Assembly (NCBI GenBank): GCA_965224465.1
Contig: OZ245049.1
Span: 690,001-722,000, forward strand
DNA from: Flavobacteriaceae bacterium
GTDB lineage: Bacteria; Bacteroidota; Bacteroidia; Flavobacteriales; Flavobacteriaceae
Direction of reading: 5' to 3'
DNA: 32,000 nucleotides
Under the pieces are notes generated by a model. That model was not told the origin of the DNA, made no database searches, and saw only the letters and a program-made list of their open reading frames with translations. A program made the position numbers and the translations under genes. Below are positions 1 through 29,881 of the stretch, one piece after another. The number at the start of each line of letters is the position of its first letter. Positions within the stretch are counted from its first letter, which is position 1.

Positions 1-727
1 ATACTTTTAATTGCTCGTGTAAGCGTTGTTCTTTGTTGCAGTTTGGATTGAACAGTTTTTCGCTTTGCTCTGTATTTGGCTTGTTGTTTCTACCTATCCC
101 TCTAAAATCGGTAATATAATCGTGAAAAGGAATTATCTGATTTGCTTCTAATTTTACTGTTCTGCTGTTCTTTCTTCTTACTCCTCCTGGGACTTTTATG
201 ATTCCTTTTTTTAGATCTAAATCTTCTAATTCTAAATTCATTAAATCTTGCTTGTCCAATGCTTGAAAAATCATTAACCCCAATAGTAGTTTATTGCTGT
301 ATTTAAAATATCCGTGTTTAGTTTTGTCTTGATAATTGGTGTAGATTTCTTGTAGTTCTTCTTCTGTTAATAAAATGATTTGCTCTTGTGCTACTCCTCT
401 TAATCTTACATTTAAAGCAATGTTTTGTATTGCTTCTGTTGAGCTATTTAAAAGACGCTGTGCGTCTAAAAAGTGGTAATAATGTTCTATTGCTCTTAAA
501 GTTGTATTGATACTTGTTTTTGATTTCTCTTGATTTTGTAAGTGTCCTATATAGTTTAATAACTGATTGTATTTTATCGTTTTCACGGTTAGTTTATTTA
601 GCTGTAACCAAATTGTAAAAAGTCCTATTCTCATTATAAAATCCTTGATACATTTTTCGCTATAAAACCTATCTGTTAGCCATTTATCAAAGGCGAGAGG
701 CTCGCTACCCAATTTATTATTTTTCAT
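1..727 (-). CDS. Second, divergent tyrosine-recombinase-like protein (313-aa type), 3' part cut by the window edge
   Basis: nt 1-992 match nt 7570-8561 (offset 7569) wherever compared. ATG at 727-725 corresponds to the start of ORF 7355-8296. It overlaps the stop of the upstream recombinase gene by 11 nt, as in the other copies. Confidence 0.85.
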   Translation of the reverse strand, partial: MKNNKLGSEPLAFDKWLTDRFYSEKCIKDFIMRIGLFTIWLQLNKLTVKTIKYNQLLNYIGHLQNQEKSKTSINTTLRAIEHYYHFLDAQRLLNSSTEAIQNIALNVRLRGVAQEQIILLTEEELQEIYTNYQDKTKHGYFKYSNKLLLGLMIFQALDKQDLMNLELEDLDLKKGIIKVPGGVRRKNSRTVKLEANQIIPFHDYITDFRGIGRNNKPNTEQSEKLFNPNCNKEQRLHEQLKV

Positions 728-1574
728 CCTGTATTAATTGGCTGTCTGCCTCAGACTCTTCAAGTATGTGCGTATAAATCTGTGTACTATCTAACCTTTT
801 ATGTCCTAAAAAATTACCAATATATTCTAACTCCATTCCTTGCTGTAAAAGATGTGTAGCAATGCTATGACGTAAACTGTGCAGGCTCGCCTGTTTTGTT
901 ATCTCTGATTTCTTCATCAAAACTTTTAACCTGTTGTTTAAATATTGTCCTGTTACTTGTGGTTTTGATTTTCCAACTAATAAATAGTTACTATTTGGAT
1001 TGATTATTTCTCTTGCAAACTCAATATATTCTTTTAAATCTGCTATTACTTTTTTACTCATTGGAACGTATCTACTTTGGTAATTCTTAGATGGTTTTAC
1101 GTAGATTAATCCTTTGTTAAAATCGAGTTCTTTGGGTTCTAAATTAATGCCTTCTTTACTTCTTAATCCGCAACCATAGTAAATACTTAGCATTGCTTTA
1201 TCAAATAAACCACTTGGACTGTGCCCATCAATTGAAGAAAAAATACTTTTAATTTCTACTTGACTAAAGATTGTTTTTTCTGTTTTTATTTCTCTTTCTA
1301 CTATAATTTTATTGACTGCTAATTTCTGTTTCTTAGTCTTTTCTAAAAAGGCACTATATCTATTTATTACGTTAATATGACCTTGTATGTATTGTCTACT
1401 CGCTTTAGTTTGATGTAGGCCTTTTATGAAGTTTTCTATCTCTTGTTGATTAGCTTTTCTTTGATTTAAGTACTTGAAAAAGTTAGCTAATAATCTTACA
1501 TATCCTTTAATGGTACTTTCTGCATAACCCAATCTAATCAACCAATTTTCAAAGTTTTCTAATTCTGTTTTCAT
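717..1574 (-). CDS. Tyrosine recombinase/integrase (XerC/D-like phage-integrase family), module 1
   Basis: ORF track, 285 aa. Motifs by eye: GCGLRSKEG (Arg-I), HSLRHSIATHLL (HxxR), LGHKRLDSTQIYTHI (His plus Tyr nucleophile). N-terminal SAM-like core-binding region. Confidence 0.9.
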   Translation of the reverse strand: MKTELENFENWLIRLGYAESTIKGYVRLLANFFKYLNQRKANQQEIENFIKGLHQTKASRQYIQGHINVINRYSAFLEKTKKQKLAVNKIIVEREIKTEKTIFSQVEIKSIFSSIDGHSPSGLFDKAMLSIYYGCGLRSKEGINLEPKELDFNKGLIYVKPSKNYQSRYVPMSKKVIADLKEYIEFAREIINPNSNYLLVGKSKPQVTGQYLNNRLKVLMKKSEITKQASLHSLRHSIATHLLQQGMELEYIGNFLGHKRLDSTQIYTHILEESEADSQLIQDEK

Positions 1575-6189: not shown

Positions 6190-6764
6190 GGATTACAAAG
6201 ATAGTTGATTTCTTAGTTTTTGTTTTTCTTCAATTGAAAAAAAAATAAACACAAAGTTTAAGGCTTGATTTTTTGTAATTAATGCCTTATCGAAATTTTC
6301 ATTTTTTAGAATAATGCTCTATGGCATTGATTATAAAAAATGAGCATCCAAGGGGTTTGGGGAATGGAAGATTCCCCATATAAATAAATCCTGCGTAGCA
6401 GACCTATTATTTTTTTTGTGCGGTTGGGAGCGTTGGATGTGTGGCTATTTTGCATAATACCAGTTATAACTACCTGGAGTTTTTCACGCAAGAGTATTAT
6501 AACTTGTATTATGTTACTTAGCTTGGGGTGGTTTTTATGGCGGATTTTTTGCTTTTGTGCGGTGGCACAGCTCTTTGGATTTTCTTTTTTTCAATTGAAA
6601 ATAAAAACGATAAAAAAGAAAATACAATGTGCTGTTTTTGCGGTGGGTTGCAGAAAGTGTGACATAAAAACCACAGAAGGGTTGGCGTGCGGAACAACAT
6701 AAAGCACAAAGGCTTTTTGCTTTTTCTGCAAAAGTTTGGGTTTTATGTTGTGGGGATTGGTCGG
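6065..6764 (-). repeat. Leader + junction region, allele A
   Basis: Conserved between all module boundaries. T-run-CAATTG-A-run palindromes at 6093-6112 (inside the leader CDS), 6229-6238 and 6590-6599. GGGGAAT-GGAAG-ATTCCCC hairpin at 6359-6377. (G)TGCGGT(T)GG repeats at 6418-6427, 6557-6565 and 6639-6646. Confidence 0.8.
6453..6513. repeat. 17-bp inverted repeat (CATAATACCAGTTATAA / TTATAACTTGTATTATG) with a 27-nt loop
   Basis: Arms at 6453-6469 and 6497-6513, complementary at 16 of 17 positions. The loop sequence is unrelated to the other copies and lacks the CAATTG palindrome. Confidence 0.75.
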
Positions 6765-7043
6765 TTATTTCTCTCCATAATGAGAATGTGCATTTAGTAC
6801 ATAAACTGTAACTATTTCTTCATTTATAGAATACACTAATCGGTGTTTATGGTTGATTCTTCTTGAATACAATCCTTTTAAATTATGTTTCAACATTTCG
6901 GGTTGTCCTGTTCCTGTTGTTGGGTGTTCCATTAATTCAGTTAATAATTTCTGTAACTTCTTTAAAATTGATTTATCTCCTACTTTTTTATGTTTCTCAA
7001 TATCTTCTAAAGCGGTTTTAGAAAATTCTAATTTATAACTCAT
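6765..7043 (-). CDS. yoeB: YoeB/Txe-family toxin (RelE superfamily mRNA interferase)
   Basis: ORF track, 92 aa. GQPEMLKHNLKGLYSRRINHKHRLVYSI closely resembles E. coli YoeB [28 protein letters not shown]. It overlaps the antitoxin stop by 4 nt. Confidence 0.88.
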   Translation of the reverse strand: MSYKLEFSKTALEDIEKHKKVGDKSILKKLQKLLTELMEHPTTGTGQPEMLKHNLKGLYSRRINHKHRLVYSINEEIVTVYVLNAHSHYGEK

Positions 7044-7291
7044 AAACCTAATAATTCACTTATTTCTTTAGGTGTAGAAATGGTTTTTGTTTCTCCATTT
7101 TGAACTTCTAAAACGCTTTGTTGAATACGTTCTATCATCTTTGCATTAAAGTACATATCGTTCTCACTAACAAGAGTTAATGCATACGATTTATCTTTCC
7201 CCCTTTGAACAATTATATACTCTCCTTTATCTACTCTTTCGAAGTATTCTTTTTGATTTTGTCTAAATTCTCTACTGCTTATAACTAACAT
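7040..7291 (-). CDS. Phd/YefM-family antitoxin
   Basis: ORF 7040-7354 trimmed to the internal ATG at 7291 (MLVISSREFRQNQKEYFERV...), which resembles the YefM N-terminus (ISYSEARQNL). The upstream 21 codons overlap a palindromic operator-like site and look non-coding. Confidence 0.75.
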   Translation of the reverse strand: MLVISSREFRQNQKEYFERVDKGEYIIVQRGKDKSYALTLVSENDMYFNAKMIERIQQSVLEVQNGETKTISTPKEISELLGL

Positions 7292-7306
7292 AATATCATA
7301 TTTTGT

Positions 7307-7321
7307 GTACCAATATGGTAC
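7307..7321. promoter_or_regulatory. Perfect palindrome GTACCA-ATA-TGGTAC upstream of the antitoxin gene (candidate YefM/YoeB operator)
   Basis: 6-bp arms with a 3-bp spacer, 16 nt upstream of ATG 7291. Type II TA operons are typically autoregulated at such palindromes. Confidence 0.55.
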
Positions 7322-7354
7322 AATATACAAATAAATAAGCAAAAAGTATTCCAT

Positions 7355-8296
7355 TTACCCTAAAGGATGAAACATTTCTATTTGTTTACTCAAATTCTTC
7401 ATGTCTTTATTACGGTACTTTTCTATATTTCCAACATTTTTATAACCGCTTAAATATTGGGTTTTTCTTAATCCAAATAAATCTATCCAAATGCCTATTC
7501 TTGATTGTTTGAGTTGAGTTAATCTTTTAATGTTTATTGTTGGATTCTGCTCCTTTATGGTTTTTACTAATACTTTTAATTGCTCGTGTAAGCGTTGTTC
7601 TTTGTTGCAGTTTGGATTGAACAGTTTTTCGCTTTGCTCTGTATTTGGCTTGTTGTTTCTACCTATCCCTCTAAAATCGGTAATATAATCGTGAAAAGGA
7701 ATTATCTGATTTGCTTCTAATTTTACTGTTCTGCTGTTCTTTCTTCTTACTCCTCCTGGGACTTTTATGATTCCTTTTTTTAGATCTAAATCTTCTAATT
7801 CTAAATTCATTAAATCTTGCTTGTCCAATGCTTGAAAAATCATTAACCCCAATAGTAGTTTATTGCTGTATTTAAAATATCCGTGTTTAGTTTTGTCTTG
7901 ATAATTGGTGTAGATTTCTTGTAGTTCTTCTTCTGTTAATAAAATGATTTGCTCTTGTGCTACTCCTCTTAATCTTACATTTAAAGCAATGTTTTGTATT
8001 GCTTCTGTTGAGCTATTTAAAAGACGCTGTGCGTCTAAAAAGTGGTAATAATGTTCTATTGCTCTTAAAGTTGTATTGATACTTGTTTTTGATTTCTCTT
8101 GATTTTGTAAGTGTCCTATATAGTTTAATAACTGATTGTATTTTATCGTTTTCACGGTTAGTTTATTTAGCTGTAACCAAATTGTAAAAAGTCCTATTCT
8201 CATTATAAAATCCTTGATACATTTTTCGCTATAAAACCTATCTGTTAGCCATTTATCAAAGGCGAGAGGCTCGCTACCCAATTTATTATTTTTCAT
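7355..8296 (-). CDS. Second, divergent tyrosine-recombinase-like protein (313-aa type)
   Basis: ORF track. SAM-like N-terminal region (TSINTTLRAIEHYYHFL). The C-terminal region aligns by eye to the first recombinase, but the Arg-I position reads D (QALDKQDL), GH is GY, and the terminal Tyr is kept (NIEKY). Confidence 0.8.
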   Translation of the reverse strand: MKNNKLGSEPLAFDKWLTDRFYSEKCIKDFIMRIGLFTIWLQLNKLTVKTIKYNQLLNYIGHLQNQEKSKTSINTTLRAIEHYYHFLDAQRLLNSSTEAIQNIALNVRLRGVAQEQIILLTEEELQEIYTNYQDKTKHGYFKYSNKLLLGLMIFQALDKQDLMNLELEDLDLKKGIIKVPGGVRRKNSRTVKLEANQIIPFHDYITDFRGIGRNNKPNTEQSEKLFNPNCNKEQRLHEQLKVLVKTIKEQNPTINIKRLTQLKQSRIGIWIDLFGLRKTQYLSGYKNVGNIEKYRNKDMKNLSKQIEMFHPLG

Positions 8297-9149
8297 CCTG
8301 TATTAATTGGCTGTCTGCCTCAGACTCTTCAAGTATGTGCGTATAAATCTGTGTACTATCTAACCTTTTATGTCCTAAAAAATTACCAATATATTCTAAC
8401 TCCATTCCTTGCTGTAAAAGATGTGTAGCAATGCTATGACGTAAACTGTGCAGGCTCGCCTGTTTTGTTATCTCTGATTTCTTCATCAAAACTTTTAACC
8501 TGTTGTTTAAATATTGTCCTGTTACTTGTGGTTTTGATTTTCCAACTAATAAATAGTTACTTTCTGTATTGATTATCTCCCTTGCAAACTCAACATATTC
8601 TTTTAAATCTGCTATTACTTTTTGAGACATTGGAACATATCTACTTTGATAATTCTTACTTGGTTTTACATAAATTAATCCTTTGTTAAAGTCTAATTCT
8701 TTTGGCTCTAAATTAATTCCCTCTTTACTTCTTAATCCGCAACCGTAGTAAATACTTAGTATTGCTTTATCAAAAAGCCCTAAGGGCTTATTTTCATCTA
8801 CAGCCTTGAATAAGGCTTGTATTTCTGATTGGCTAAAAATGGTTCTTTGGGTTCTGATTTCCTTTTCTACTATGATTTTACCTGTTACTAATTTTTGCTT
8901 TTTGGTGAGTTCTAAAAACTTACTGTACCTGTTTATTACATTAATATAACCTTGTATTGATTGTCTTGCTAATTTAGTTTGATGTAGGTCTTTTATGAAG
9001 TTTTCTATCTCTTGTTGATTAGGCTTTCTTTGATTTAAATACTTGAAAAAATTAGCTAATAACCTGACATATCCTTTGATGGTGCTTTCTGCATAACCCA
9101 ATCTAATTAACCACAGCTTGAAGCTGTTCAATTCATTTTCTTTCTCCAT
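8286..9149 (-). CDS. Tyrosine recombinase/integrase, module 2
   Basis: ORF track, 287 aa, with the same R...HxxR...H...Y motifs as 717-1574. Its 3' part is identical to 717-992 in the tract compared. Confidence 0.9.
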   Translation of the reverse strand: MEKENELNSFKLWLIRLGYAESTIKGYVRLLANFFKYLNQRKPNQQEIENFIKDLHQTKLARQSIQGYINVINRYSKFLELTKKQKLVTGKIIVEKEIRTQRTIFSQSEIQALFKAVDENKPLGLFDKAILSIYYGCGLRSKEGINLEPKELDFNKGLIYVKPSKNYQSRYVPMSQKVIADLKEYVEFAREIINTESNYLLVGKSKPQVTGQYLNNRLKVLMKKSEITKQASLHSLRHSIATHLLQQGMELEYIGNFLGHKRLDSTQIYTHILEESEADSQLIQDEK

Positions 9150-12307: not shown

Positions 12308-12757
12308 ATGGAAAATATATTTGGAAACTTTGATTTAGTACCCGATAATGAAAAAGGGTACATTGAAGAATTGGAAAAGGAATACGGTATTTCACTACCT
12401 CCAATATTTAAAGTATTTTGTCAAACTTTTGTTTTAAACTCTCTTAAGCCAAATGAAAACCACCATATATTTTATCCTGATGAAGAGTTAGGCTTTGATG
12501 GTTTTGAATTTAACCTAAAAGAATTATTAGGATACTATCAAGAAGTAGGGGAACCTCATTCTCAAAGAAAAATGATTCCAATAGCGACTTCATCTCTACA
12601 TTCTGGTGGGATATGTATTTGCTATGACAATCAGAATAAAGATAAAATCTACGTAAATGATGAAATGTCAGATGATGATTTTACACAAGTAGCTACTGAT
12701 ATTCTCGATTTTATCTCGCAAATAGGACAGTTTAATTTTTCAAATAACAATTCTTAA
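12308..12757 (+). CDS. SUKH-1 (SMI1/KNR4-like) immunity protein
   Basis: ORF track, 149 aa. The N-terminus (IEELEKEYGISLPPIFKVFCQTF) is typical of SMI1/KNR4-SUKH immunity proteins. It lies 7 nt after the XRE stop and is convergent with the WHH-type toxin. Confidence 0.7.
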   Translation: MENIFGNFDLVPDNEKGYIEELEKEYGISLPPIFKVFCQTFVLNSLKPNENHHIFYPDEELGFDGFEFNLKELLGYYQEVGEPHSQRKMIPIATSSLHSGGICICYDNQNKDKIYVNDEMSDDDFTQVATDILDFISQIGQFNFSNNNS

Positions 12758-13563
12758 AACCCCATAAATTCAAATAAATCTTGTAACCCTTTTGAAATTA
12801 TTGATTTACCTCCTGAATGATTAAACCCTTTAGGTACACTATGTATAGATGTCTTAACAGGAAATAAAGTTCTCCCATCTTCAAAATGATGCCAAGTATA
12901 TGTCTCCCAATTACCATTCTCAAATAATTGAAATTGCTTTGACATTCCACCTGAATTGGTTTGTGCAATTCTAAAGTTCCCATTAGTCATATAGCCATTA
13001 TTCCAAGGCCAATTACCGCCTGATTTTTCAATCCCAAATTTCTTTGCTAAAGCCGTATTTGCTTGAGTAAAATCCGTTCCTGCACCTGTTAGATTTGGTG
13101 ATTCAAATTTAAACTTGCTTGCAGTTGTTCCATCAGTAAAATTGAGAATGGGTGAATTAGAACGTAAATCCGGCATTCCTTTTTTATAGGTTACAGAAAC
13201 ACTTTGCCCATCAATAACTTTTGTAACAGTATAATCCATCTGACCACCATAACCTTGTGGATGTTTGAGTGTTTTATAGTGATTATCTAATTGTTGAAGT
13301 TTTACGTCAGTAAGATTATCTAATTTAGCCAAGAAAGAAGCATCAGCAACATCATCTAAGCTGTTCACAAAGTTTTTAGCAAAACTTAAATCCCCTAAAG
13401 CATCAAGTTTTGTAATAATTTTAGATTTCCCCACCGTATTAGCCAATTCTTCAACACTATTACTACTTTTTTCAGTTGAAAAAAAAGTATCGTTTGCACT
13501 TAAATTTAGTGTCGAAAAAACACTAAGTACAACTAATAGGAATATTTTAAATTGATTACTCAC
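12754..13563 (-). CDS. Secreted polymorphic toxin, body type B (WHH-type HNH/EndoVII-fold nuclease)
   Basis: The ORF track gives 12754-13572 with a TTG start. I prefer GTG at 13563, which aligns with the GTG start of 5479-6189. Shared leader. The C-terminus TYTWHHFEDGRTLFPVKTSIHSVPKGFNHSGG fits the WHH clade of HNH/EndoVII toxins, which commonly pair with SUKH immunity proteins. Confidence 0.75.
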   Translation of the reverse strand: MSNQFKIFLLVVLSVFSTLNLSANDTFFSTEKSSNSVEELANTVGKSKIITKLDALGDLSFAKNFVNSLDDVADASFLAKLDNLTDVKLQQLDNHYKTLKHPQGYGGQMDYTVTKVIDGQSVSVTYKKGMPDLRSNSPILNFTDGTTASKFKFESPNLTGAGTDFTQANTALAKKFGIEKSGGNWPWNNGYMTNGNFRIAQTNSGGMSKQFQLFENGNWETYTWHHFEDGRTLFPVKTSIHSVPKGFNHSGGKSIISKGLQDLFEFMGF

Positions 13564-14153
13564 AGATGACAAAGGTAACAGTTTTCTTAGTTTTTCTTTT
13601 TCTTCAATTGAAAAAAAAACTAAGGCTTGATTTTTTTATAATTATTGCCTTGTCGAAATGTTGATTTTAAAACTAATGTTCTTGGCAATGATTATGAAAA
13701 AATGAGCATCCAAAGGGGTTTGGGGAATGGAAGATTCCCCATATAAATAAATCCTGCGTAGCAGACCTATTTTTTTAGTGTGTCGGCAAGTGTGGTGGAT
13801 GTGTGGCTATTTTGCATAATACCAGTTATAATGACATTTTTTTCAATTGAAAAGAAAATAATCAACTCGAAAAATGTGCGAAGCGAACTTATAACTTGTA
13901 TTATGTAACTTAGCTTGGGGTTTAATTTTTTGGCATTGCTTTTTGTTCTGTGCGGTGGGGTAGCTGTTTGGTGTTGGCTTTTTTTATTTTCAAAAAAAAC
14001 AATAACAAAGTGCTACTTGTGGAATGGCTTACAAAAACTATGACAAAAAATTAAACAGAAGGGATGGCGAGCGGAACAAAAGGAAACACAAAGGCTTTTT
14101 GCTTTTTCTGCAAAAATTTGGGTTTACTTTTGTGGGGATTTGTGCGGTGGATT
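13439..14153 (-). repeat. Leader + junction region, allele B
   Basis: Palindromes at 13467-13486 (CAGTTG variant, inside the CDS), 13603-13612 and 13842-13851. A degenerate T-run/A-run relic lies at about 13979-13999. Hairpin at 13722-13740. GTGCGGTGG at 13950-13958 and 14142-14150. Confidence 0.8.
13815..13905. repeat. Same 17-bp inverted repeat with a 57-nt loop containing a CAATTG palindrome
   Basis: Arms at 13815-13831 and 13889-13905. Confidence 0.75.
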
Positions 14154-15035
14154 TTATCCCAATGGATGAAACATTTCTATCTGTTTACTAAGGTTTTTCA
14201 TATCCTTATTTCGGTACTTTTCTATATTCCCAACATTTTTATAGCCACTTAAATATTGTGTTTTTCTTAATCCATATAAATCTATCCAAATACCTATTCT
14301 TGATTGTTTGAGCTGGGTTAGTCTTTTGATATTTAGTGCTGGATTTTGTTCTCTAATTGTTTTTACTAATGCTTTTAATTGTTCGTGCACCCTCTGTTCT
14401 TTATTGACATTTGGATGAAATAGTTTTTCGCTTTCTTCTAAACTTACTTTTCCATTTCTTCCTATTCCTCTAAAGTTGGTTATGTAATCGTGTAATGGTA
14501 TTATCTGATTGGCTTCTAATTTTACTACTCTACTATTTTTTCTTCTGATTCCTCCAGGTACTTTTATAATTCCTTTTTCTAAATCTAAATCGTCTAATTC
14601 TAAATTCATTAAATCTTGCTTGTCTAATGCTTGAAAAAGCATTAATCCTAATAGTAATTTATTGCTGTATTTAAAATAACCGTGTTTGGTCTTATCTTGA
14701 TAATTGGTATAGATTTCTTGTAGTTCCTTTTCTGTTAATAGTATGATTTGTTCTTGTGCTACTCCTCTTAATCTTACATTTAAAGCAATATTATCTATCC
14801 TTAAAAAATGGTAATAATGTTCTATTGCTCTAAGGGTTGTATTGATACTTGTTTTTGATTTCTCTTGATTCTGTAAATGTCCTATGTAGTTTAATAGTTG
14901 ATTGTATTTTATGGTTTTTAGGGTTAGTTTATTAAGTTTTAACCAAATTGTAAAAAGTCCTATTCGCATTATAAAACCTTTGATACATTTCTCACTGTAA
15001 TATCTATCAATTAACCATTTTCTGTATTCTTCCAT
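14154..15035 (-). CDS. Second, divergent tyrosine-recombinase-like protein (293-aa type)
   Basis: ORF track. Paralogue of 7355-8296 that lacks the N-terminal extension and the DAQRLLNSSTEAIQN insert. It overlaps the upstream recombinase gene by 25 nt. Confidence 0.8.
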   Translation of the reverse strand: MEEYRKWLIDRYYSEKCIKGFIMRIGLFTIWLKLNKLTLKTIKYNQLLNYIGHLQNQEKSKTSINTTLRAIEHYYHFLRIDNIALNVRLRGVAQEQIILLTEKELQEIYTNYQDKTKHGYFKYSNKLLLGLMLFQALDKQDLMNLELDDLDLEKGIIKVPGGIRRKNSRVVKLEANQIIPLHDYITNFRGIGRNGKVSLEESEKLFHPNVNKEQRVHEQLKALVKTIREQNPALNIKRLTQLKQSRIGIWIDLYGLRKTQYLSGYKNVGNIEKYRNKDMKNLSKQIEMFHPLG

Positions 15036-15862
15036 TCCTCCAATATGTGCGTGTAAATCTGTGTACTATCCAACCTTTTATGACCTAAAAAATTACCGAT
15101 ATATTCTAACTCCATTCCTTGCTGTAAAAGATGTGTTGCAATGCTATGTCTTAAACTGTGTAGACTTGCTTTTTTAGTAATATTGGCTTTATTCATTAAC
15201 TTCTTTAATCTGCTGTTTAAATATTGTCCTGTTACTTGTGGTTTTGTTTTTCCAACTAATAAATAGTTACTTTCTGTATTGATTATCTCCCTTGCAAACT
15301 CAACATATTCTTTTAAATCTGCTATTACTTTTTGAGACATTGGAACATATCTACTTTGATAATTCTTACTTGGTTTTATGTACAATAATCCTTTGTTATA
15401 GTCTATTTCTTTAGGTTCTAAATTAATGCCTTCTTTACTTCTTAATCCACAACCATAGTAGATACTTAGCATTGCTTTATCAAATAAACCACTCGGACTG
15501 TGCCCATCAATTGAAGAAAAAAGTTGTTGTATTTCTAATTGATTAAAGATTACTTTTTCTGTTTTTATTTCTCTTTCTACTATAATTTTATTGACTGCTA
15601 ATTTCTGTTTTTTGGTCTTTTCTAAAAAGGCACTGTATCTATTTATTACGTTAATATGACCTTGTATATATTGTCTACTGGCTTTAGTTTGATGTAGGTC
15701 TTTTATGAAGTTTTCTATCTCTTTTTGATTAGGCTTTCTTTGGTTTAAATACTTGAAAAAATTAGCTAATAATCTTACATATCCTTTGATGGTGCTTTCT
15801 GCATAACCCAATCTTATCAACCAATTCTCAAAGTTTTCTAATTCTTCTTTTAAGTTTATCAT
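15011..15862 (-). CDS. Tyrosine recombinase/integrase, module 3
   Basis: ORF track, 283 aa, with GCGLRSKEG, HSLRHSIATHLL and LGHKRLDSTQIYTHI. The C-terminal tail (EEWKNTENG) differs from modules 1, 2 and 5. Confidence 0.9.
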   Translation of the reverse strand: MINLKEELENFENWLIRLGYAESTIKGYVRLLANFFKYLNQRKPNQKEIENFIKDLHQTKASRQYIQGHINVINRYSAFLEKTKKQKLAVNKIIVEREIKTEKVIFNQLEIQQLFSSIDGHSPSGLFDKAMLSIYYGCGLRSKEGINLEPKEIDYNKGLLYIKPSKNYQSRYVPMSQKVIADLKEYVEFAREIINTESNYLLVGKTKPQVTGQYLNSRLKKLMNKANITKKASLHSLRHSIATHLLQQGMELEYIGNFLGHKRLDSTQIYTHILEEWKNTENG

Positions 15863-15960: not shown

Positions 15961-18540
15961 TTAGTTGCCCACTAACAGGGCTGGGCTACTGTGGTTTACT
16001 GGTTCACTGCGGAGAGCCTCCGCTGGCGTATTTTCTTTTCTTATATCTTCCAAAGCCTTATCTAATGCTGTTTCTATACTGTTTTTTAAGTTTTCGTATT
16101 CTTCTGTATTCAATAACTCATACTCGTAACCTCTTGCTCTGTTACCTCCAATTACACTTAAATATCCATATCTGTTTAAGTCTGATAAATGCCTGTTTAA
16201 TGTGGTTGGTGCAAAACGATATGCCTTTCTAATTTCTTTACTGTAAAAACTCTTTTTTTGATATTTAGATAAATACCCTTTAAGTAATTCCAAAAAATCT
16301 CGACACGCTTTTGTTAGTTCATCACTTTTAGCTAATAGTACCGTTTTTAATAGCTTATTGGCTTGTTCTATATCTTCTAAAGTCGTTTCGATATAATAGT
16401 TTCCTTGTTCGTCTTTTTTACGCTCTCGCTGGTATTGATGATAAAATGTTACCGTTTCTATAAAGCTTAAATAATGGGTGTTGGTTCTTAATGGTTTAAA
16501 AACTGTTTCGGGAATATTTAATAGTGTAGCGTAGGGATTTACAACTTTTACTTTCTCTAACAACCATTGTACATCTTTCAAAAATTCCCTGGCGTTATTC
16601 TCTTCTTGCTTGTTGATTTTTCCTGCTGAACTATTTTGTTGATAGCTCATAATTCCCTCTTTTTGTTCTTTTGAATTGTCTAAATAAATGAGTAAACTTC
16701 TGTTGGCATTATCTTCATAAATCTTTTCTTTGGTGGTTGTTCCTGCTAAACAAATTGGTCCTTCTACGGTTAGGGTCACGGTTTTTAGGTTTCCTTTGGC
16801 ATCTTTTATAGGAATAGTTTTACTTATTTTTCGTTTACTCATTAGCTCTCTTATAGCATACAGAATTTTATCATCTTGTGCTCCGTCCAGATCCTCAATT
16901 AGAACTAATTTATTTTTCAGTTCTGTTCTATCAAAATAGTATAAAGCATTTTCGGATAATGCTGTAATTTCTAATTTATGTTCTTCTGGTATCAGGTCTG
17001 ATATTTTTTCTTGTAGGTAGGTTTTCCCTGTTCCACTTGCTCCAAGACTTATAATGTGTAGCGGTTGTTCTCTTAATCTGCTCGTAAAAACCAAATACAT
17101 TAACAAACGATTATCAAACTCTCCAACCATTCCCGTTTTCCCGATTAAATCATTTGTGTTTTGTAGTAAATTCTCTCCTTTTAAGAACTCAATTGCCTTT
17201 TGTTTTCTTAGCTCTGTTAGTTCCCTTAATTTCTTCTTTTGTGGCTTCTGTGAATCAACTTGTCTTAACCTGTAATCTTCTAATAAATTAATCAACTCAA
17301 AAAGGGTGCTTTGTATTTCTCGTGTTCCTAACTCTAACCTTTCGGCTACTTTTCTTATAAATTTCTCCGTTGCATCATCATTGTATAAATCTAAATTACT
17401 TTGTCTAATGTTGTAGATTGGACTTGGATTATCTGTTCTTGTTATTCGTAAGGTTACTTTTAGCTTATCTAAACTGAATAGGTTTATTCCACCTAAAACG
17501 GCTACTAAAATATTGTTGTTTTGATATGTTATGTATTCTGAATTTGTAACATCTAAATTATTGCCTGCAGGTGCTACCTGCTCTGTTATAAATTCAGTTT
17601 CTGAACCAAATAAATTTATTCTTTCATTTATTAAATGCTCTAATATTTCGGAACTATGACTAATTACCAAACTATTTATATCTTCTCCTTGCGGACAATT
17701 AATTTTACTTATTGATAAATTATTGAGTAGTTGGTTTAGTGTTTTAGAATGTTCTTGTATTGCTTTTTCACCTGCTTCATCTCCATCAAAGAAAAATATC
17801 ACTTCTTGTAAATTCTCTATTCTTTTAATCGCCTCCAAGTGCAACTTGGTAAATCCATTTGTTCCATATAAAGCAAGTGTTTCATAGTTGGTATATTTCT
17901 GAAGTGTAGCACTATCAATTATACTTTCTGTAAGGATTATTACTTGTGTTTCTGCAGGTGGATATTTCGGATACAATCCTTTTCTGTTAGCTGTATAATA
18001 ATGCGTTCCTGTTTTGGCTATATTTCTGCCGTAGAGACTTACTATCTCGTTTTGCTCATTTTTGAGTGGGTAAACAATACAGTTTTTGAGTTGTTTAAAT
18101 TGAGTACCATTATTATACCCTTGCTCTAACTTTACATCATAGATTCCTCTTTCTTCTAAATAGGCAATTGCTTTTTTACTTCTGTGTAGGCTTTGTTTGA
18201 ATTTTGGAAATAGCTCTTCAAAATTTACATTCTCTATCTTTTCAAGTTTAGAAGTGCTCGTAATTTTTAATTCATCATTCGTAATTGACAAAAGGCTTTT
18301 CGCCTTTTGTATTGCTTTGTGTTTTGTACATTTCTCAAAATCTTGAATAAACTGTATTACATCTCCTGTTTTATCACAACCAAAACAAGTGTAAGTATTC
18401 GTTTCTGGGTAAATTCTTAAACTTGGTTTATCGTCTTTATGGAAAGGACACAAACAATGCTTGTTTTTATTCATTACAACACTGTACTCGTTTAGTACTG
18501 TAACTATGCTTAATTGCTCTTTAATTTGCTTGATTTCCAT
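15961..18540 (-). CDS. Primase-helicase-like replication protein (tail type 2)
   Basis: ORF track, 859 aa, same domain motifs. Variable linker after the Zn finger. Extra C-terminal residues encoded by a GCGGAG-AGC-CTCCGC hairpin-forming insert. Confidence 0.9.
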   Translation of the reverse strand: MEIKQIKEQLSIVTVLNEYSVVMNKNKHCLCPFHKDDKPSLRIYPETNTYTCFGCDKTGDVIQFIQDFEKCTKHKAIQKAKSLLSITNDELKITSTSKLEKIENVNFEELFPKFKQSLHRSKKAIAYLEERGIYDVKLEQGYNNGTQFKQLKNCIVYPLKNEQNEIVSLYGRNIAKTGTHYYTANRKGLYPKYPPAETQVIILTESIIDSATLQKYTNYETLALYGTNGFTKLHLEAIKRIENLQEVIFFFDGDEAGEKAIQEHSKTLNQLLNNLSISKINCPQGEDINSLVISHSSEILEHLINERINLFGSETEFITEQVAPAGNNLDVTNSEYITYQNNNILVAVLGGINLFSLDKLKVTLRITRTDNPSPIYNIRQSNLDLYNDDATEKFIRKVAERLELGTREIQSTLFELINLLEDYRLRQVDSQKPQKKKLRELTELRKQKAIEFLKGENLLQNTNDLIGKTGMVGEFDNRLLMYLVFTSRLREQPLHIISLGASGTGKTYLQEKISDLIPEEHKLEITALSENALYYFDRTELKNKLVLIEDLDGAQDDKILYAIRELMSKRKISKTIPIKDAKGNLKTVTLTVEGPICLAGTTTKEKIYEDNANRSLLIYLDNSKEQKEGIMSYQQNSSAGKINKQEENNAREFLKDVQWLLEKVKVVNPYATLLNIPETVFKPLRTNTHYLSFIETVTFYHQYQRERKKDEQGNYYIETTLEDIEQANKLLKTVLLAKSDELTKACRDFLELLKGYLSKYQKKSFYSKEIRKAYRFAPTTLNRHLSDLNRYGYLSVIGGNRARGYEYELLNTEEYENLKNSIETALDKALEDIRKENTPAEALRSEPVNHSSPALLVGN

Positions 18541-18667: not shown

Positions 18668-19033
18668 ATGGATTTAGCAGAAAACATTAAAGCAATTAGA
18701 GAAGAAAAGGGTTTAAAACAGATTGAAGTAGCTGATTATATTGGTGTTGATAAATCCGCTTATAGTAAAATTGAAAAAGGTTCTCGTTCTTTGGCTATTG
18801 AGGAACTTCAAAAAATGGCACAGCTCTTTAATCTGACTACTGACCAAATTCTTAACTATGATGGTAACATACCTAAAGAGGTAACCATTGAAGATAAAAC
18901 CGCAGTAGAGCAAATGAGGTTGATACAAGAATTAGATGAAGAGGATAAACAAACTGTCTTTAAAATAATTGATAAGATGCTTACTACTAAGAAATTTAAA
19001 GACTTCTTTAATAAAAATGTAGCTACGCTTTGA
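18668..19033 (+). CDS. XRE/Cro-C1-type HTH regulator
   Basis: ORF track, 121 aa (IREEKGLKQIEVADYIGVDKSAYSKIEKGSR). Divergent from the primase gene. Confidence 0.85.
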   Translation: MDLAENIKAIREEKGLKQIEVADYIGVDKSAYSKIEKGSRSLAIEELQKMAQLFNLTTDQILNYDGNIPKEVTIEDKTAVEQMRLIQELDEEDKQTVFKIIDKMLTTKKFKDFFNKNVATL

Positions 19034-19570: not shown

Positions 19571-20226
19571 TAGTTTATAAAATCTTCAAGTGCTTTAATT
19601 TCAAAAGTTATATCAGGATCAACTGTATTAAGTTTATTCATCCATTCCGTTTTCAATGTTGGCGTTATACTGGCTTTAGGCATATAGACATCAATTTTAG
19701 CATTTGTAATAAACATTGTTTTCCCATTGCTCACGAGACCTGTTGAAGGGTCTAGACCTTCTTTTAGAAATTTAATATTTTTCTGCATTGGTGCTGACGC
19801 TAACCAAGTATCAACATTTGTTGAAATAGTCGTTTTCATAGAAACAGCTGTATTTGCAAAAATTTGATTTGCTGTTTCTGTCCCTTTGTAAAAATCGATT
19901 CCTTTAAAGTTAAATGATATATCTCCTGTATGAAGCCACCCAGATGATTTAGTGTAACGATATTGTCCCATTACATCTTCAAAGAAACTTCTACCACCTA
20001 ACATATCAGGTATAGGATATTTCGTTTTCCAAATATCGTCTATGTGTTTAAGCTTATCAGATAAGGACTTGCTAATGAAGCCAGCCAAATCATCCACCGA
20101 GTTAGCCAATTCTTCAACACTATTACTACTTTTTTCAGTTGAAAAAAAAGTATCGTTTGCACTTAAATTTAGTGTCGAAAAAACACTAAGTACAACTAAT
20201 AGGAATATTTTAAATTGATTACTCAC
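19570..20226 (-). CDS. Secreted polymorphic toxin, body type C (possible PD-(D/E)xK-like nuclease)
   Basis: The ORF track gives 19570-20235 (TTG). GTG at 20226 is preferred by alignment with the paralogues. Shared leader. The body has GGRSFFEDV...GIDFY...AVSMKT, read by eye as E...D...SxK; the nuclease call is weak. Confidence 0.65.
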   Translation of the reverse strand: MSNQFKIFLLVVLSVFSTLNLSANDTFFSTEKSSNSVEELANSVDDLAGFISKSLSDKLKHIDDIWKTKYPIPDMLGGRSFFEDVMGQYRYTKSSGWLHTGDISFNFKGIDFYKGTETANQIFANTAVSMKTTISTNVDTWLASAPMQKNIKFLKEGLDPSTGLVSNGKTMFITNAKIDVYMPKASITPTLKTEWMNKLNTVDPDITFEIKALEDFIN

Positions 20227-20816
20227 AGATGACAAAGGTAACAGTTTTCTTAGTTTTTCTTTTTCTTCAATTGAAAAAAAAACTAAGGCTTGATTTTTTT
20301 ATAATTATTGCCTTGTCGAAATGTTGATTTTAAAACTAATGTTCTTGGCAATGATTATGAAAAAATGAGCATCCAAAGGGGTTTGGGGAATGGAAGATTC
20401 CCCATATAAATAAATCCTGCGTAGCAGACCTATTTTTTTAGTGTGTCGGCAAGTGTGGTGGATGTGTGGCTATTTTGCATAATACCAGTTATAATGACAT
20501 TTTTTTCAATTGAAAAGAAAATAATCAACTCGAAAAATGTGCGAAGCGAACTTATAACTTGTATTATGTAACTTAGCTTGGGGTTTAATTTTTTGGCATT
20601 GCTTTTTGTTCTGTGCGGTGGGGTAGCTGTTTGGTGTTGGCTTTTTTTATTTTCAAAAAAAACAATAACAAAGTGCTACTTGTGGAATGGCTTACAAAAA
20701 CTATGACAAAAAATTAAACAGAAGGGATGGCGAGCGGAACAAAAGGAAACACAAAGGCTTTTTGCTTTTTCTGCAAAAATTTGGGTTTACTTTTGTGGGG
20801 ATTTGTGCGGTGGATT
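20102..20816 (-). repeat. Leader + junction region, allele B (duplicate)
   Basis: Same as 13439-14153 at +6663. Palindromes at 20130-20149, 20266-20275 and 20505-20514. Hairpin at 20385-20403. Confidence 0.8.
20478..20568. repeat. Same 17-bp inverted repeat (duplicate of 13815-13905)
   Basis: Offset 6663. Confidence 0.75.
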
Positions 20817-21698
20817 TTATCCCAATGGATGAAACATTTCTATCTGTTTACTAAGGTTTTTCATATCCTTATTTCGGTACTTTTCTATATTCCCAACATT
20901 TTTATAGCCACTTAAATATTGTGTTTTTCTTAATCCATATAAATCTATCCAAATACCTATTCTTGATTGTTTGAGCTGGGTTAGTCTTTTGATATTTAGT
21001 GCTGGATTTTGTTCTCTAATTGTTTTTACTAATGCTTTTAATTGTTCGTGCACCCTCTGTTCTTTATTGACATTTGGATGAAATAGTTTTTCGCTTTCTT
21101 CTAAACTTACTTTTCCATTTCTTCCTATTCCTCTAAAGTTGGTTATGTAATCGTGTAATGGTATTATCTGATTGGCTTCTAATTTTACTACTCTACTATT
21201 TTTTCTTCTGATTCCTCCAGGTACTTTTATAATTCCTTTTTCTAAATCTAAATCGTCTAATTCTAAATTCATTAAATCTTGCTTGTCTAATGCTTGAAAA
21301 AGCATTAATCCTAATAGTAATTTATTGCTGTATTTAAAATAACCGTGTTTGGTCTTATCTTGATAATTGGTATAGATTTCTTGTAGTTCCTTTTCTGTTA
21401 ATAGTATGATTTGTTCTTGTGCTACTCCTCTTAATCTTACATTTAAAGCAATATTATCTATCCTTAAAAAATGGTAATAATGTTCTATTGCTCTAAGGGT
21501 TGTATTGATACTTGTTTTTGATTTCTCTTGATTCTGTAAATGTCCTATGTAGTTTAATAGTTGATTGTATTTTATGGTTTTTAGGGTTAGTTTATTAAGT
21601 TTTAACCAAATTGTAAAAAGTCCTATTCGCATTATAAAACCTTTGATACATTTCTCACTGTAATATCTATCAATTAACCATTTTCTGTATTCTTCCAT
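20817..21698 (-). CDS. Second, divergent tyrosine-recombinase-like protein (293-aa type), duplicate copy
   Basis: Translation identical to 14154-15035 (offset 6663). Confidence 0.8.
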   Translation of the reverse strand: MEEYRKWLIDRYYSEKCIKGFIMRIGLFTIWLKLNKLTLKTIKYNQLLNYIGHLQNQEKSKTSINTTLRAIEHYYHFLRIDNIALNVRLRGVAQEQIILLTEKELQEIYTNYQDKTKHGYFKYSNKLLLGLMLFQALDKQDLMNLELDDLDLEKGIIKVPGGIRRKNSRVVKLEANQIIPLHDYITNFRGIGRNGKVSLEESEKLFHPNVNKEQRVHEQLKALVKTIREQNPALNIKRLTQLKQSRIGIWIDLYGLRKTQYLSGYKNVGNIEKYRNKDMKNLSKQIEMFHPLG

Positions 21699-22525
21699 TC
21701 CTCCAATATGTGCGTGTAAATCTGTGTACTATCCAACCTTTTATGACCTAAAAAATTACCGATATATTCTAACTCCATTCCTTGCTGTAAAAGATGTGTT
21801 GCAATGCTATGTCTTAAACTGTGTAGACTTGCTTTTTTAGTAATATTGGCTTTATTCATTAACTTCTTTAATCTGCTGTTTAAATATTGTCCTGTTACTT
21901 GTGGTTTTGTTTTTCCAACTAATAAATAGTTACTTTCTGTATTGATTATCTCCCTTGCAAACTCAACATATTCTTTTAAATCTGCTATTACTTTTTGAGA
22001 CATTGGAACATATCTACTTTGATAATTCTTACTTGGTTTTATGTACAATAATCCTTTGTTATAGTCTATTTCTTTAGGTTCTAAATTAATGCCTTCTTTA
22101 CTTCTTAATCCACAACCATAGTAGATACTTAGCATTGCTTTATCAAATAAACCACTCGGACTGTGCCCATCAATTGAAGAAAAAAGTTGTTGTATTTCTA
22201 ATTGATTAAAGATTACTTTTTCTGTTTTTATTTCTCTTTCTACTATAATTTTATTGACTGCTAATTTCTGTTTTTTGGTCTTTTCTAAAAAGGCACTGTA
22301 TCTATTTATTACGTTAATATGACCTTGTATATATTGTCTACTGGCTTTAGTTTGATGTAGGTCTTTTATGAAGTTTTCTATCTCTTTTTGATTAGGCTTT
22401 CTTTGGTTTAAATACTTGAAAAAATTAGCTAATAATCTTACATATCCTTTGATGGTGCTTTCTGCATAACCCAATCTTATCAACCAATTCTCAAAGTTTT
22501 CTAATTCTTCTTTTAAGTTTATCAT
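21674..22525 (-). CDS. Tyrosine recombinase/integrase, module 4 (duplicate of module 3)
   Basis: Translation identical to 15011-15862. Confidence 0.9.
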   Translation of the reverse strand: MINLKEELENFENWLIRLGYAESTIKGYVRLLANFFKYLNQRKPNQKEIENFIKDLHQTKASRQYIQGHINVINRYSAFLEKTKKQKLAVNKIIVEREIKTEKVIFNQLEIQQLFSSIDGHSPSGLFDKAMLSIYYGCGLRSKEGINLEPKEIDYNKGLLYIKPSKNYQSRYVPMSQKVIADLKEYVEFAREIINTESNYLLVGKTKPQVTGQYLNSRLKKLMNKANITKKASLHSLRHSIATHLLQQGMELEYIGNFLGHKRLDSTQIYTHILEEWKNTENG

Positions 22526-27496: not shown

Positions 27497-27775
27497 TTAT
27501 TTCTCTCCATAATGAGAATGTGCATTTAGTACATAAACTGTAACTATTTCTTCATTTATAGAATACACTAATCGGTGTTTATGGTTGATTCTTCTTGAAT
27601 ACAATCCTTTTAAATTATGTTTCAACATTTCGGGTTGTCCTGTTCCTGTTGTTGGGTGTTCCATTAATTCAGTTAATAATTTCTGTAACTTCTTTAAAAT
27701 TGATTTATCTCCTACTTTTTTATGTTTCTCAATATCTTCTAAAGCGGTTTTAGAAAATTCTAATTTATAACTCAT
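27497..27775 (-). CDS. yoeB: YoeB/Txe-family toxin (second copy)
   Basis: Translation identical to 6765-7043 (offset 20732). Confidence 0.88.
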   Translation of the reverse strand: MSYKLEFSKTALEDIEKHKKVGDKSILKKLQKLLTELMEHPTTGTGQPEMLKHNLKGLYSRRINHKHRLVYSINEEIVTVYVLNAHSHYGEK

Positions 27776-28023: not shown

Positions 28024-28038
28024 AATATCATATTTTGT

Positions 28039-28053
28039 GTACCAATATGGTAC
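28039..28053. promoter_or_regulatory. Same palindrome, second copy
   Basis: Offset 20732 from 7307-7321. Confidence 0.55.
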
Positions 28054-28086
28054 AATATACAAATAAATAAGCAAAAAGTATTCCAT

Positions 28087-29028
28087 TTACCCTAAAGGAT
28101 GAAACATTTCTATTTGTTTACTCAAATTCTTCATGTCTTTATTACGGTACTTTTCTATATTTCCAACATTTTTATAACCGCTTAAATATTGGGTTTTTCT
28201 TAATCCAAATAAATCTATCCAAATGCCTATTCTTGATTGTTTGAGTTGAGTTAATCTTTTAATGTTTATTGTTGGATTCTGCTCCTTTATGGTTTTTACT
28301 AATACTTTTAATTGCTCGTGTAAGCGTTGTTCTTTGTTGCAGTTTGGATTGAACAGTTTTTCGCTTTGCTCTGTATTTGGCTTGTTGTTTCTACCTATCC
28401 CTCTAAAATCGGTAATATAATCGTGAAAAGGAATTATCTGATTTGCTTCTAATTTTACTGTTCTGCTGTTCTTTCTTCTTACTCCTCCTGGGACTTTTAT
28501 GATTCCTTTTTTTAGATCTAAATCTTCTAATTCTAAATTCATTAAATCTTGCTTGTCCAATGCTTGAAAAATCATTAACCCCAATAGTAGTTTATTGCTG
28601 TATTTAAAATATCCGTGTTTAGTTTTGTCTTGATAATTGGTGTAGATTTCTTGTAGTTCTTCTTCTGTTAATAAAATGATTTGCTCTTGTGCTACTCCTC
28701 TTAATCTTACATTTAAAGCAATGTTTTGTATTGCTTCTGTTGAGCTATTTAAAAGACGCTGTGCGTCTAAAAAGTGGTAATAATGTTCTATTGCTCTTAA
28801 AGTTGTATTGATACTTGTTTTTGATTTCTCTTGATTTTGTAAGTGTCCTATATAGTTTAATAACTGATTGTATTTTATCGTTTTCACGGTTAGTTTATTT
28901 AGCTGTAACCAAATTGTAAAAAGTCCTATTCTCATTATAAAATCCTTGATACATTTTTCGCTATAAAACCTATCTGTTAGCCATTTATCAAAGGCGAGAG
29001 GCTCGCTACCCAATTTATTATTTTTCAT
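28087..29028 (-). CDS. Second, divergent tyrosine-recombinase-like protein (313-aa type), third copy
   Basis: Translation identical to 7355-8296. Confidence 0.8.
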   Translation of the reverse strand: MKNNKLGSEPLAFDKWLTDRFYSEKCIKDFIMRIGLFTIWLQLNKLTVKTIKYNQLLNYIGHLQNQEKSKTSINTTLRAIEHYYHFLDAQRLLNSSTEAIQNIALNVRLRGVAQEQIILLTEEELQEIYTNYQDKTKHGYFKYSNKLLLGLMIFQALDKQDLMNLELEDLDLKKGIIKVPGGVRRKNSRTVKLEANQIIPFHDYITDFRGIGRNNKPNTEQSEKLFNPNCNKEQRLHEQLKVLVKTIKEQNPTINIKRLTQLKQSRIGIWIDLFGLRKTQYLSGYKNVGNIEKYRNKDMKNLSKQIEMFHPLG

Positions 29029-29881
29029 CCTGTATTAATTGGCTGTCTGCCTCAGACTCTTCAAGTATGTGCGTATAAATCTGTGTACTATCTAATCTTT
29101 TATGACCTAAAAAATTACCAATATATTCTAACTCCATTCCTTGCTGTAAAAGGTGTGTCGCTATACTGTGGCGTAAACTGTGCAGTGTTGCATTTTTATT
29201 AATGTTTGCCTTATTCATTAACTTCTTTAATCTACTGTTTAAATATTGACCTGTTACTTGTGGATTTGATTTCCCAACTAATAAATAGTTACTTTCTGTA
29301 TTGATTATCTCCCTTGCAAACTCAACATATTCTTTTAAATCTGCTATTACTTTTTTACTCATTGGAACGTATCTACTTTGATAATTCTTACTTGGTTTGA
29401 CATAAATTAATCCTTTGTTAAAGTCTAATTCTTTTGGTTCTAAATTAATACCTTCTTTACTTCTTAATCCACAACCATAGTAGATACTTAGCATTGCTTT
29501 ATCAAATAAACCACTCGGACTGTGCCCATCAATTGAAGAAAAAAGTTGTTGTATTTCTAATTGATTAAAGATTACTTTTTCTGTTTTTATTTCTCTTTCT
29601 ACTATAATTTTATTGACTGCTAATTTCTGTTTTTTGGTCTTTTCTAAAAAGGCACTGTATCTATTTATTACGTTAATATGACCTTGTATATATTGTCTAC
29701 TGGCTTTGGTTTGATGCAAGCCTTTTATAAACTCTTCTATCTCTTGTTGATTAGCTTTTCTTTGATTTAAGTACTTGAAAAAATTAGCTAATAACCTTAC
29801 ATATCCTTTGATGGTGCTTTCTGCATAGCCTAATCTAACTAACCAATTCTCAAAGTTTTCTAATTCTTCTTTTAAATTCAT
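29018..29881 (-). CDS. Tyrosine recombinase/integrase, module 5 (mosaic)
   Basis: ORF track, 287 aa. The C-terminal tail matches modules 1 and 2 (EESEADSQLIQDEK). The N-terminal two-thirds resemble modules 3 and 4 (EKVIFNQLEIQQLFSSIDGHSPSG). Confidence 0.9.
   Translation of the reverse strand: MNLKEELENFENWLVRLGYAESTIKGYVRLLANFFKYLNQRKANQQEIEEFIKGLHQTKASRQYIQGHINVINRYSAFLEKTKKQKLAVNKIIVEREIKTEKVIFNQLEIQQLFSSIDGHSPSGLFDKAMLSIYYGCGLRSKEGINLEPKELDFNKGLIYVKPSKNYQSRYVPMSKKVIADLKEYVEFAREIINTESNYLLVGKSNPQVTGQYLNSRLKKLMNKANINKNATLHSLRHSIATHLLQQGMELEYIGNFLGHKRLDSTQIYTHILEESEADSQLIQDEK

Follow-up and report, generated by a model that had tools for sequence, protein, structure and literature searches.

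In the 32,000-nucleotide stretch of a Flavobacteriaceae genome analysed here (assembly GCA_965224465.1, contig OZ245049.1, genome positions 690001-722000; hereafter the window), the modules of a tandem array each carry two overlapping tyrosine recombinase genes, which we call Int1 and Int2. Int1 has a complete active site. Int2, its downstream partner, has lost canonical catalytic residues, is under strong purifying selection, and is always found beside an Int1-type gene in the Bacteroidota genomes sampled. On balance, we lean towards the view that the two proteins form an obligate heteromer resembling XerC/XerD, in which Int1 would carry out the chemistry and Int2 would bind DNA and control its partner, with weak or no catalysis of its own.

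A canonical recombinase overlapped by a degenerate partner

An earlier note on this DNA had described, in each module, a canonical integrase followed by a second gene overlapping it by 25 or 11 nt. The open reading frames and the six catalytic residues of Int1 confirm this arrangement (Table 1). The pair under study consists of a 283-amino-acid (aa) Int1 and a 293-aa Int2, overlapping by 25 nt. The other Int2 allele, of 313 aa, is longer than the 293-aa protein by nine residues at the N-terminus and by an insertion of 11 residues in the linker. These two length variants, and the SAM-like N-terminal domain that had been proposed for Int2, are borne out by the reading frames and by Pfam.

With regard to profile scores, the two proteins differ markedly. 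Int1 scores 123-127 bits against Pfam Phage_integrase (122.9 bits for the 283-aa Int1), compared with 27-32 bits for Int2, which matches the SAM-like N-terminal domain in addition. Against the XerA/XerD-like models of NCBIfam, Int1 scores 161-167 bits, which is under the equivalog cut-offs, and the best score of Int2 is 58 bits, for cut-offs of 220-335, with an alignment to XerD that runs end to end. NCBIfam holds no model specific to the Int2 family (GmtY gives 23-24 bits for a cut-off of 340), and database names for the family go no further than "site-specific integrase/XerD".

The catalytic residues were mapped from three independent alignments: phmmer against XerA/XerD, an hhalign comparison of Int2 and Int1 alignments comprising 29 and 17 sequences, respectively (probability 99.8), and a profile search of solved structures. 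The Int1 residues R141 (Arg-I), K166 (the β-hairpin lysine), H235 (His-II), R238 (Arg-II), H261 (His-III) and Y270 (the nucleophile) correspond in Int2 to D138, R164, T240, K243, Y265 and Y274, respectively. All three methods agree on the aspartate at Arg-I, as had been read by eye, where Int2 exhibits ALDKQDL in place of GLRxxEL. The alignments likewise support the GY in place of GH and the retained terminal tyrosine (EKY274). In contrast, the tripeptide QSR, previously taken as a degenerate HxxR, was off by three residues: the HxxR of Int1 (H235 to R238) pairs with T240-Q-L-K243 of Int2, and QSR occupies the 'HS+1' position after Arg-II. The profile alignment that had been suggested as a check for a full catalytic set left canonical residues missing from Int2. 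The invariant R257 of Int2, together with Q260, was considered as a relocated Arg-I and rejected, as it is part of the ordinary Xer motif DLRVVQMLLGH.

Mutagenesis of Cre offers a yardstick for these substitutions. In Cre, the strict requirement is confined to Tyr and Lys; Arg-I accepts only H or K, while R292K and W315Y/F retain partial activity; among working recombinases, the canonical residue is found at Arg-I in 91%, at Lys in 95%, at Arg-II in 99% and at His-III in 92% (PMC2943603). Judged in this way from its sequence, the Int2 allele studied here, which falls in the family's most degenerate subgroup (signature D|K,Y,Y), would carry two severe lesions, namely an acidic Arg-I and no lysine at the aligned position, along with two lesions that are mild.

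The active site across the Int2 family

In a matched set of 17 Int1/Int2 pairs from 14 genomes, the host included, the six catalytic residues of Int1 are invariant (17/17). In the Int2 partners, arginine is absent from the Arg-I position (0/17), which is occupied by D (five), T (six), K (three), E, N and S. The lysine position exhibits K in two sequences and R in nine, and His-II is H in a single one. Arg-II is R in 12 and K in the other five, His-III is H in 12, and the tyrosine is kept in 16. In a wider survey of 151 Int2 family representatives, Arg-I is the most variable of the catalytic columns (T47, S19, R18, N14, D10, G10, K9 and others), and the His-II column is mainly K, Q or R. The tyrosine is lost in 6% of the representatives, being replaced by F (seven), C or L in nine clusters; these clusters differ at Arg-I, which suggests that the losses were independent. 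The best-conserved columns of Int2 are non-catalytic, namely Q135, R169, S245, R257 and P291.

Several observations nevertheless weigh against a subunit with little or no catalysis. Arginine does occur at Arg-I in 18 of the 151 representatives (12%), which overturned an apparent rule from the first 29-46 sequences that excluded R from this position. At Arg-II, 139 (92%) have R, at His-III, 135 (89%) have H, and the tyrosine is present in 142 (94%); residues so well kept fit retained chemistry better than a purely architectural role. Moreover, K at Arg-II and Y or F at His-III are substitutions that Cre tolerates. Most members of the family also exhibit a dibasic [RK][RK] motif in the β-hairpin (RRK in the host allele), which, by analogy with IntDOT, could supply a relocated arginine. 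The alignment of this hairpin, with the loop G-I-R-R-K-N-S-R, shifts by one or two residues between the structure-profile and hhalign results.

These points could be explained if Int2 were a fully working recombinase with a non-canonical site, in which R164 or R165 of the hairpin would stand in for Arg-I and K166 would act as the general acid, with Int1 and Int2 each exchanging one strand pair. IntDOT provides a precedent: its box-I arginine is absent, and an arginine located downstream is reported to take over the role (PMC8138268). The conservation of Tyr, Arg-II and His-III, the dibasic hairpin, the tolerance of Cre to R292K and W315Y/F, and the very strong purifying selection on Int2 described below all point in the same direction. 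In our assessment this remains the less probable explanation, although a serious one, since the host allele not only has an acidic Arg-I but is also weakened at Arg-II (K) and at His-III (Y), the basic residues of the hairpin are replaced by A, P, N, G or V in five of the 17 pairs, and the tyrosine has become phenylalanine in seven clusters. In addition, several non-catalytic columns surpass the catalytic ones in conservation, the reverse of what is observed in working families (PMC2943603). The active site of Int2 thus appears relaxed rather than abandoned. The earlier suggestion that Int2 may be inactive holds as far as the loss of canonical residues is concerned; inactivity itself is unproven, considering the proportion of members that keep Arg-II, His-III and Tyr.

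Purifying selection and obligate pairing

Among diverged copies within the genome, the ratio of non-synonymous to synonymous substitution rates (dN/dS) is 0.06-0.15 for Int2, 0.13-0.31 for Int1 and 0.10-0.14 for the primase encoded next to them. Int2 is therefore under stronger purifying selection than Int1, and is functional rather than decaying. A functionless, decaying duplicate of Int1 would exhibit the weak Pfam score and the lost canonical catalytic residues of Int2. It would not be expected to exhibit these dN/dS values, reading frames that are intact in nearly all copies, a family of 983 representative clusters, or a position of the gene that is constant from 25% to 100% identity. We consider this explanation highly improbable, and the idea of Int2 as a pseudogene, which was rejected on dN/dS, is effectively refuted by the selection and conservation data. 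In-frame stops were observed in some individual copies of Int1 (G391, G084 and G275) and of Int2 (G084).

The Int2 family is large. It comprises 67 clusters at 90% identity in one database, and 983 representatives at E<=1e-30 among 1.84 billion proteins, the best 150 of which all lie below 1e-76; at 50% identity it amounts to about 1000 clusters, distributed over at least eight Bacteroidota families. Of 400 other Bacteroidota genomes searched with an Int2 profile, 13, from at least seven families, carry the gene. Each Int2 gene is immediately preceded on its own strand by an Int1-type gene, which either overlaps it or lies within a few dozen bases of it. Conversely, matches to the Int1 profile above 327 bits are confined to genomes that carry Int2. 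Two intermediate matches (280 and 248 bits) also adjoin an Int2-type gene, and single Xer-like genes begin at about 204 bits. Altogether, the pair is present in 15 of the 401 sampled genomes, host included, and neither gene occurs alone in any of them, in agreement with the obligate character that had been proposed for it. The Int1/Int2 pair is an obligate and ancient unit. Pairwise distances of Int1 and Int2 are strongly correlated (Mantel r=0.935, 17 pairs), as expected for genes that are inherited together.

The coupling of the pair to a primase-helicase, also proposed earlier, was examined in 14 loci of twenty kb from 12 other genomes. The order XRE regulator, primase, Int1, Int2 is retained in 13 of these 14 contexts. 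Upstream of the pair, these loci typically encode a protein of 1100-1900 aa with DUF6443/RHS repeats or an AHH/HNH toxin tip. The primases of these loci (L028-L041) fall into two size classes, of approximately 505-540 aa and 840-885 aa, the latter with a P-loop C-terminal half. At one locus (L040, G107:C3), the recombinase pair is found without a recognisable primase.

Fold and C-terminal tail

The AF2 model of Int2 (predicted local distance difference test, pLDDT, of 85.7) exhibits the full two-domain tyrosine recombinase fold, and its best Foldseek matches are XerA, the Int of Tn1549, IntI4, Cre and lambda Int. Int1 was modelled with a pLDDT of 87.3, and the models match XerA, XerD and Cre. 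The two proteins also differ after the catalytic tyrosine. In Int2, this tail has a fixed length of 18-20 aa and the motif D[LM]xxLxxx[IV]xx[FY]HP[LM], which aligns with the C-terminus of XerD, ERLRQLHQQHHPR (..LRQLHQQHHPR). In Int1, it comprises 7-33 unconserved residues, and only 7-8 in three lineages. Correspondingly, a terminal helix (residues 282-289) is set apart by a loop in the Int2 model only, whereas Int1 ends in one continuous helix. Int2 has also retained the Xer motif LRxxQxxxG(H), which has been lost from Int1. Judging by these motifs, the paralogues have degenerated in a complementary fashion, Int1 keeping the active site and Int2 the ancestral Xer motif and tail. The residues that follow the tyrosine pack against the neighbouring subunit in Cre, lambda Int and Xer, and in Xer they have a part in partner control.

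The tail bears on the possibility that Int2 acts outside the recombining tetramer, as an independent DNA-binding accessory involved in directionality or site choice, or as a regulator or origin-binding protein. Such a role would suit the degenerate active site and modules that have no Xis-like gene, and the repeated TTTCAATTGAAA palindromes between Int2 and the module junction need some binder. We nonetheless judge it improbable. Int2 retains a Xer-type docking helix, the HP motif and a complete fold of core-binding and catalytic domains, features that point to contacts between subunits within a recombinase tetramer; the overlap of the two genes and their strict 1:1 pairing also speak against an independent factor.

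Proposed mechanism

In the heteromer that we favour, two Int1 and two Int2 subunits would assemble on core sites with two dissimilar arms. Int2, bound to its own arm, would position Int1 and switch it on allosterically through its tail. Int1 would then exchange one strand pair and create a Holliday junction, which could be finished either by weak residual chemistry of Int2 or by replication driven by the element's own primase-helicase. A precedent for the second route is found in the XerC-only pathway of CTX phage, in which a XerC-made Holliday junction is resolved by replication (PMC6744903). Since both proteins are simple recombinases without an arm-binding domain, a lambda-type Xis is not expected. 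In agreement with the earlier note, no Xis-like small open reading frame is observed in the modules, where the small frames encode YoeB/YefM, immunity proteins and the XRE regulator.

A bolder version of this mechanism can be envisaged, which we regard as speculative and rather unlikely. Int2 would be a dedicated pseudo-enzyme subunit of Xer-like ancestry that locks the tetramer so that only Int1 cuts, and integration and excision would be half site-specific and half replicative, in that one strand exchange would take place and the element's own primase-helicase would then resolve the Holliday junction. If true, this would account for the linkage to the primase and for the array of largely identical tandem duplicates.

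Organisation of the modules and candidate recombination sites

The host genome is a single contig of 5.24 Mb with 33.6% G+C. The window contains five head-to-tail module copies of 6.7-7.6 kb each, with five recombinase pairs out of at least nine in the genome. The array as a whole comprises at least nine modules, all on the minus strand, between 680.5 and 746.4 kb of the genome. Each module begins with a toxin tip preceded by a conserved leader, followed by immunity or other cargo genes, a divergent XRE-type helix-turn-helix (HTH) regulator, a primase-helicase of about 850 aa, Int1, Int2, YefM/YoeB in some modules only, and a conserved non-coding stretch that leads to the next leader. The array adjoins an 1827-aa fn3/AHH protein, the last 259 residues of which are 98% identical to the nearest orphan tip. 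We consider it somewhat probable, as part of the favoured reading, that the modules are small integrative, self-replicating elements that occupy, in Bacteroidota, the boundary between the body and the tip of polymorphic toxin genes. The primase-helicase comprises a CHC2 Zn-ribbon, a Toprim domain and, at residue 500, the Walker A motif GASGTGKT.

Table 1. Recombinase genes, neighbouring genes and repeats (positions in the window unless stated otherwise)
Feature	Positions	Strand	Description
Int1	15011..15862	-	283 aa, canonical simple (Xer-like) tyrosine recombinase
Int2	14154..15035	-	293 aa, degenerate partner recombinase, Xer-type C-terminal tail ending FHPLG
Int1	8286..9149	-	287-aa allele
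Int2	7355..8296	-	313-aa allele, 11-nt overlap with Int1
Int1	21674..22525	-	identical to 15011..15862
Int2	20817..21698	-	identical to 14154..15035
Int1	29018..29881	-	287 aa
Int2	28087..29028	-	313-aa allele
Int1	717..1574	-	285 aa
Int2	2..727	-	313-aa allele, cut by the window edge
Primase-helicase	15961..18540	-	859 aa, directly upstream of Int1 (15011..15862) on the same strand
XRE-family HTH regulator	18668..19033	+	divergent; Pfam HTH_3, E 5.8e-17; same position in related loci
YefM/Phd-like antitoxin	7040-7354	-	true start probably internal
YoeB-like toxin	6765-7043	-	
YefM/YoeB, repeated	27772-28086		repeated also downstream
Variable cargo	12754-13572	-	varies between modules
Variable cargo	12308-12757	+	varies between modules
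Variable cargo	4703-5476	-	varies between modules
Module junction GAAGAATTGGCTAA	13439..13452	-	codons ..EELAN; leader/toxin-body homology stops and tip-specific sequence starts
Further GAAGAATTGGCTAA-pattern copies	6065-6078, 20102-20115, 26765-26778		
Palindrome TTTCAATTGAAA	6096-6107, 6589-6600, 13841-13852, 20504-20515, 26796-26807, 27180-27191, 27321-27332		
41-bp repeat	4864, 11613, 18362		copies in the relative G191, in gene orientation

Four nucleotide-identical copies of the 313-aa Int2 allele are found in the genome, at 682217-683158, 689786-690727, 697355-698296 and 718087-719028. This identical allele accompanies three Int1 alleles that share 84-92% aa identity with one another. 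The partners are therefore exchangeable within the genome, and the modules are mosaic: recombination or gene conversion has set a boundary close to where int1 and int2 overlap. Tandem neighbours within the array are often identical or near-identical duplicates, at spacings of 7569, 7569, 6663 and approximately 7580 bp. Such near-identical modules would fit repeated re-integration of a replicating excised element, integration of a multimer, or unequal crossing-over.

The cargo varies from module to module. In one of them, a WHH (HNH/EndoVII) nuclease tip is accompanied by a SUKH-family immunity gene on the opposite strand, and in another, a tip of no assigned family is followed by an Imm49 immunity gene. 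The YefM/YoeB pair adjoins only the 313-aa Int2 allele, and is probably an addiction module of that variant of the element.

With regard to the recombination site, the GAAGAATTGGCTAA junction pattern occurs four times in the window, for zero expected. An alignment of ten junctions, including that of the full-length toxin gene, shows that all share TTGGCT(A/G)A at the codons ..LAN, and this octamer is a candidate crossover core. Inspection by eye of the sequences flanking this core revealed no obvious dyad symmetry. In a distant relative (G191, locus L032, G191:C15), three copies of a 41-bp repeat delimit a unit of 6749 bp; the repeat codes for NYYPFGLKHKGYNN at the point where the shell of an RHS toxin meets its tip. 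This repeat contains an imperfect inverted repeat (TTATTATCCTTT ... AAAGGCTATAATAA) and is partly dyad-symmetric, which counts against the heteromer proposed above. The G191 unit has no leader open reading frame, and its orphan copies exhibit stop codons ahead of the 41-bp repeat.

The palindrome TTTCAATTGAAA is present in seven copies in the window, for 0.02 expected by chance. Every copy falls within the conserved non-coding stretch or the leader that separate Int2 from the module junction, and one of these is inside the leader codons (DTFFSIEKS). The palindrome may serve as an operator, an origin iteron or an accessory site for the recombinase.

Comparison with known recombinase systems

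The closest resemblance is to XerC/XerD. These are also paralogous simple recombinases that consist of a SAM-like core-binding domain and a catalytic domain, without an arm-binding domain; the best profile and fold matches of Int1 and Int2 are XerA and XerD, and Int2 keeps the LRxxQ..G(H) and ..HP motifs. In contrast, XerC and XerD both have full active sites, whereas Int2 exhibits D/R/T/K/Y/Y. XerC and XerD are encoded by host housekeeping genes that act at dif and are usually unlinked, whereas Int1 and Int2 are element-borne and overlapping. With scores of 54-167 bits, far below the Xer equivalog cut-offs of about 330 bits, Int1 and Int2 are not equivalogs of XerC, XerD or XerA. The proposed completion of the reaction by replication resembles, by analogy, the FtsK-independent pathway of CTX phage and other IMEXs, in which one partner makes the Holliday junction and replication completes the process (PMC6744903).

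IntDOT is likewise a Bacteroidota tyrosine recombinase without the usual Arg-I, and the basic β-hairpin residues of Int2 recall its downstream arginine. Nevertheless, IntDOT is a single integrase of approximately 400 aa with arm-binding, core-binding and catalytic domains, which keeps K, H, R, H and Y. Int2, with 293 aa, starts at the SAM-like domain, has no arm-binding domain and is always accompanied by a canonical partner. The host Int2 also lacks the identities at Lys, His-II, Arg-II and His-III, and the basic residues of the hairpin are not conserved family-wide.

Adjacent and often overlapping tyrosine recombinase genes, thought to act jointly, are known from Tn554 (TnpA/TnpB), recombinase-in-trio (RIT) elements and BIM (PMC3414803). 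The parallel with Tn554 and RIT drawn earlier is valid insofar as several recombinases occur together; it does not extend further, as both proteins here are simple and Xer-like by sequence. RIT elements and gamma-mobile-trio systems comprise three recombinases, each with RH-Y, whereas the modules studied here have two and no GmtY/Rit signature. According to the descriptions of Tn554, which set the two systems apart, its recombinases carry N-terminal insertions or extensions (in TnpA, N-terminal β-strands and a helix inserted between the domains), TnpB is long and a third gene, tnpC, is present (PMC8138268, PMC3414803), whereas Int1 and Int2 are plain Xer-like proteins of 283-313 aa with no tnpC-like neighbour, being flanked by a primase, a toxin-antitoxin pair and a leader. 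In BIM, the second protein is not a recombinase. None of these three systems is reported with a primase or within toxin genes.

With respect to the cargo, rAID-1 of Bacteroidales and the Rhs/CdiA orphan-tip arrays are similar, in that they are toxin-tip/immunity arrays of Bacteroidota with a tyrosine recombinase; Imm49 and SUKH are among the immunity cargo here. In rAID-1 (recombinase-associated acquired interbacterial defence), a single recombinase precedes a series of short immunity genes, which share one orientation and have conserved motifs between them, and no primase is described (PMC12247911). By comparison with this description, each unit of approximately 7 kb studied here has its own primase-helicase, regulator and recombinase pair. 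In the literature searched, mostly without subscription journals, the Int1/Int2 pair is not described; rAID, RIT/BIM/Tn554, GInt, IntDOT and Rhs displacement were the systems that came up.

Heteromeric tyrosine recombination is known almost wholly from XerC/XerD, a pair of complete enzymes whose control comes from outside (FtsK, XafT and accessory sequences). Int1/Int2 belongs to this known kind, the heteromeric tyrosine recombinase pair, and what the present work adds is an analysis of its second subunit, residue by residue and throughout the family. In this large family, the asymmetry is built into the proteins themselves: Int1 has the chemistry without the docking tail, and Int2 has the tail with a drifting active site. 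The pair therefore offers a natural system for studying the roles of recombinase subunits beyond catalysis, and how the order of strand exchange and directionality are set without Xis. As it drives elements through which polymorphic toxins appear to have their toxic tips replaced, it also bears on the turnover of toxins and immunity proteins in Bacteroidota.

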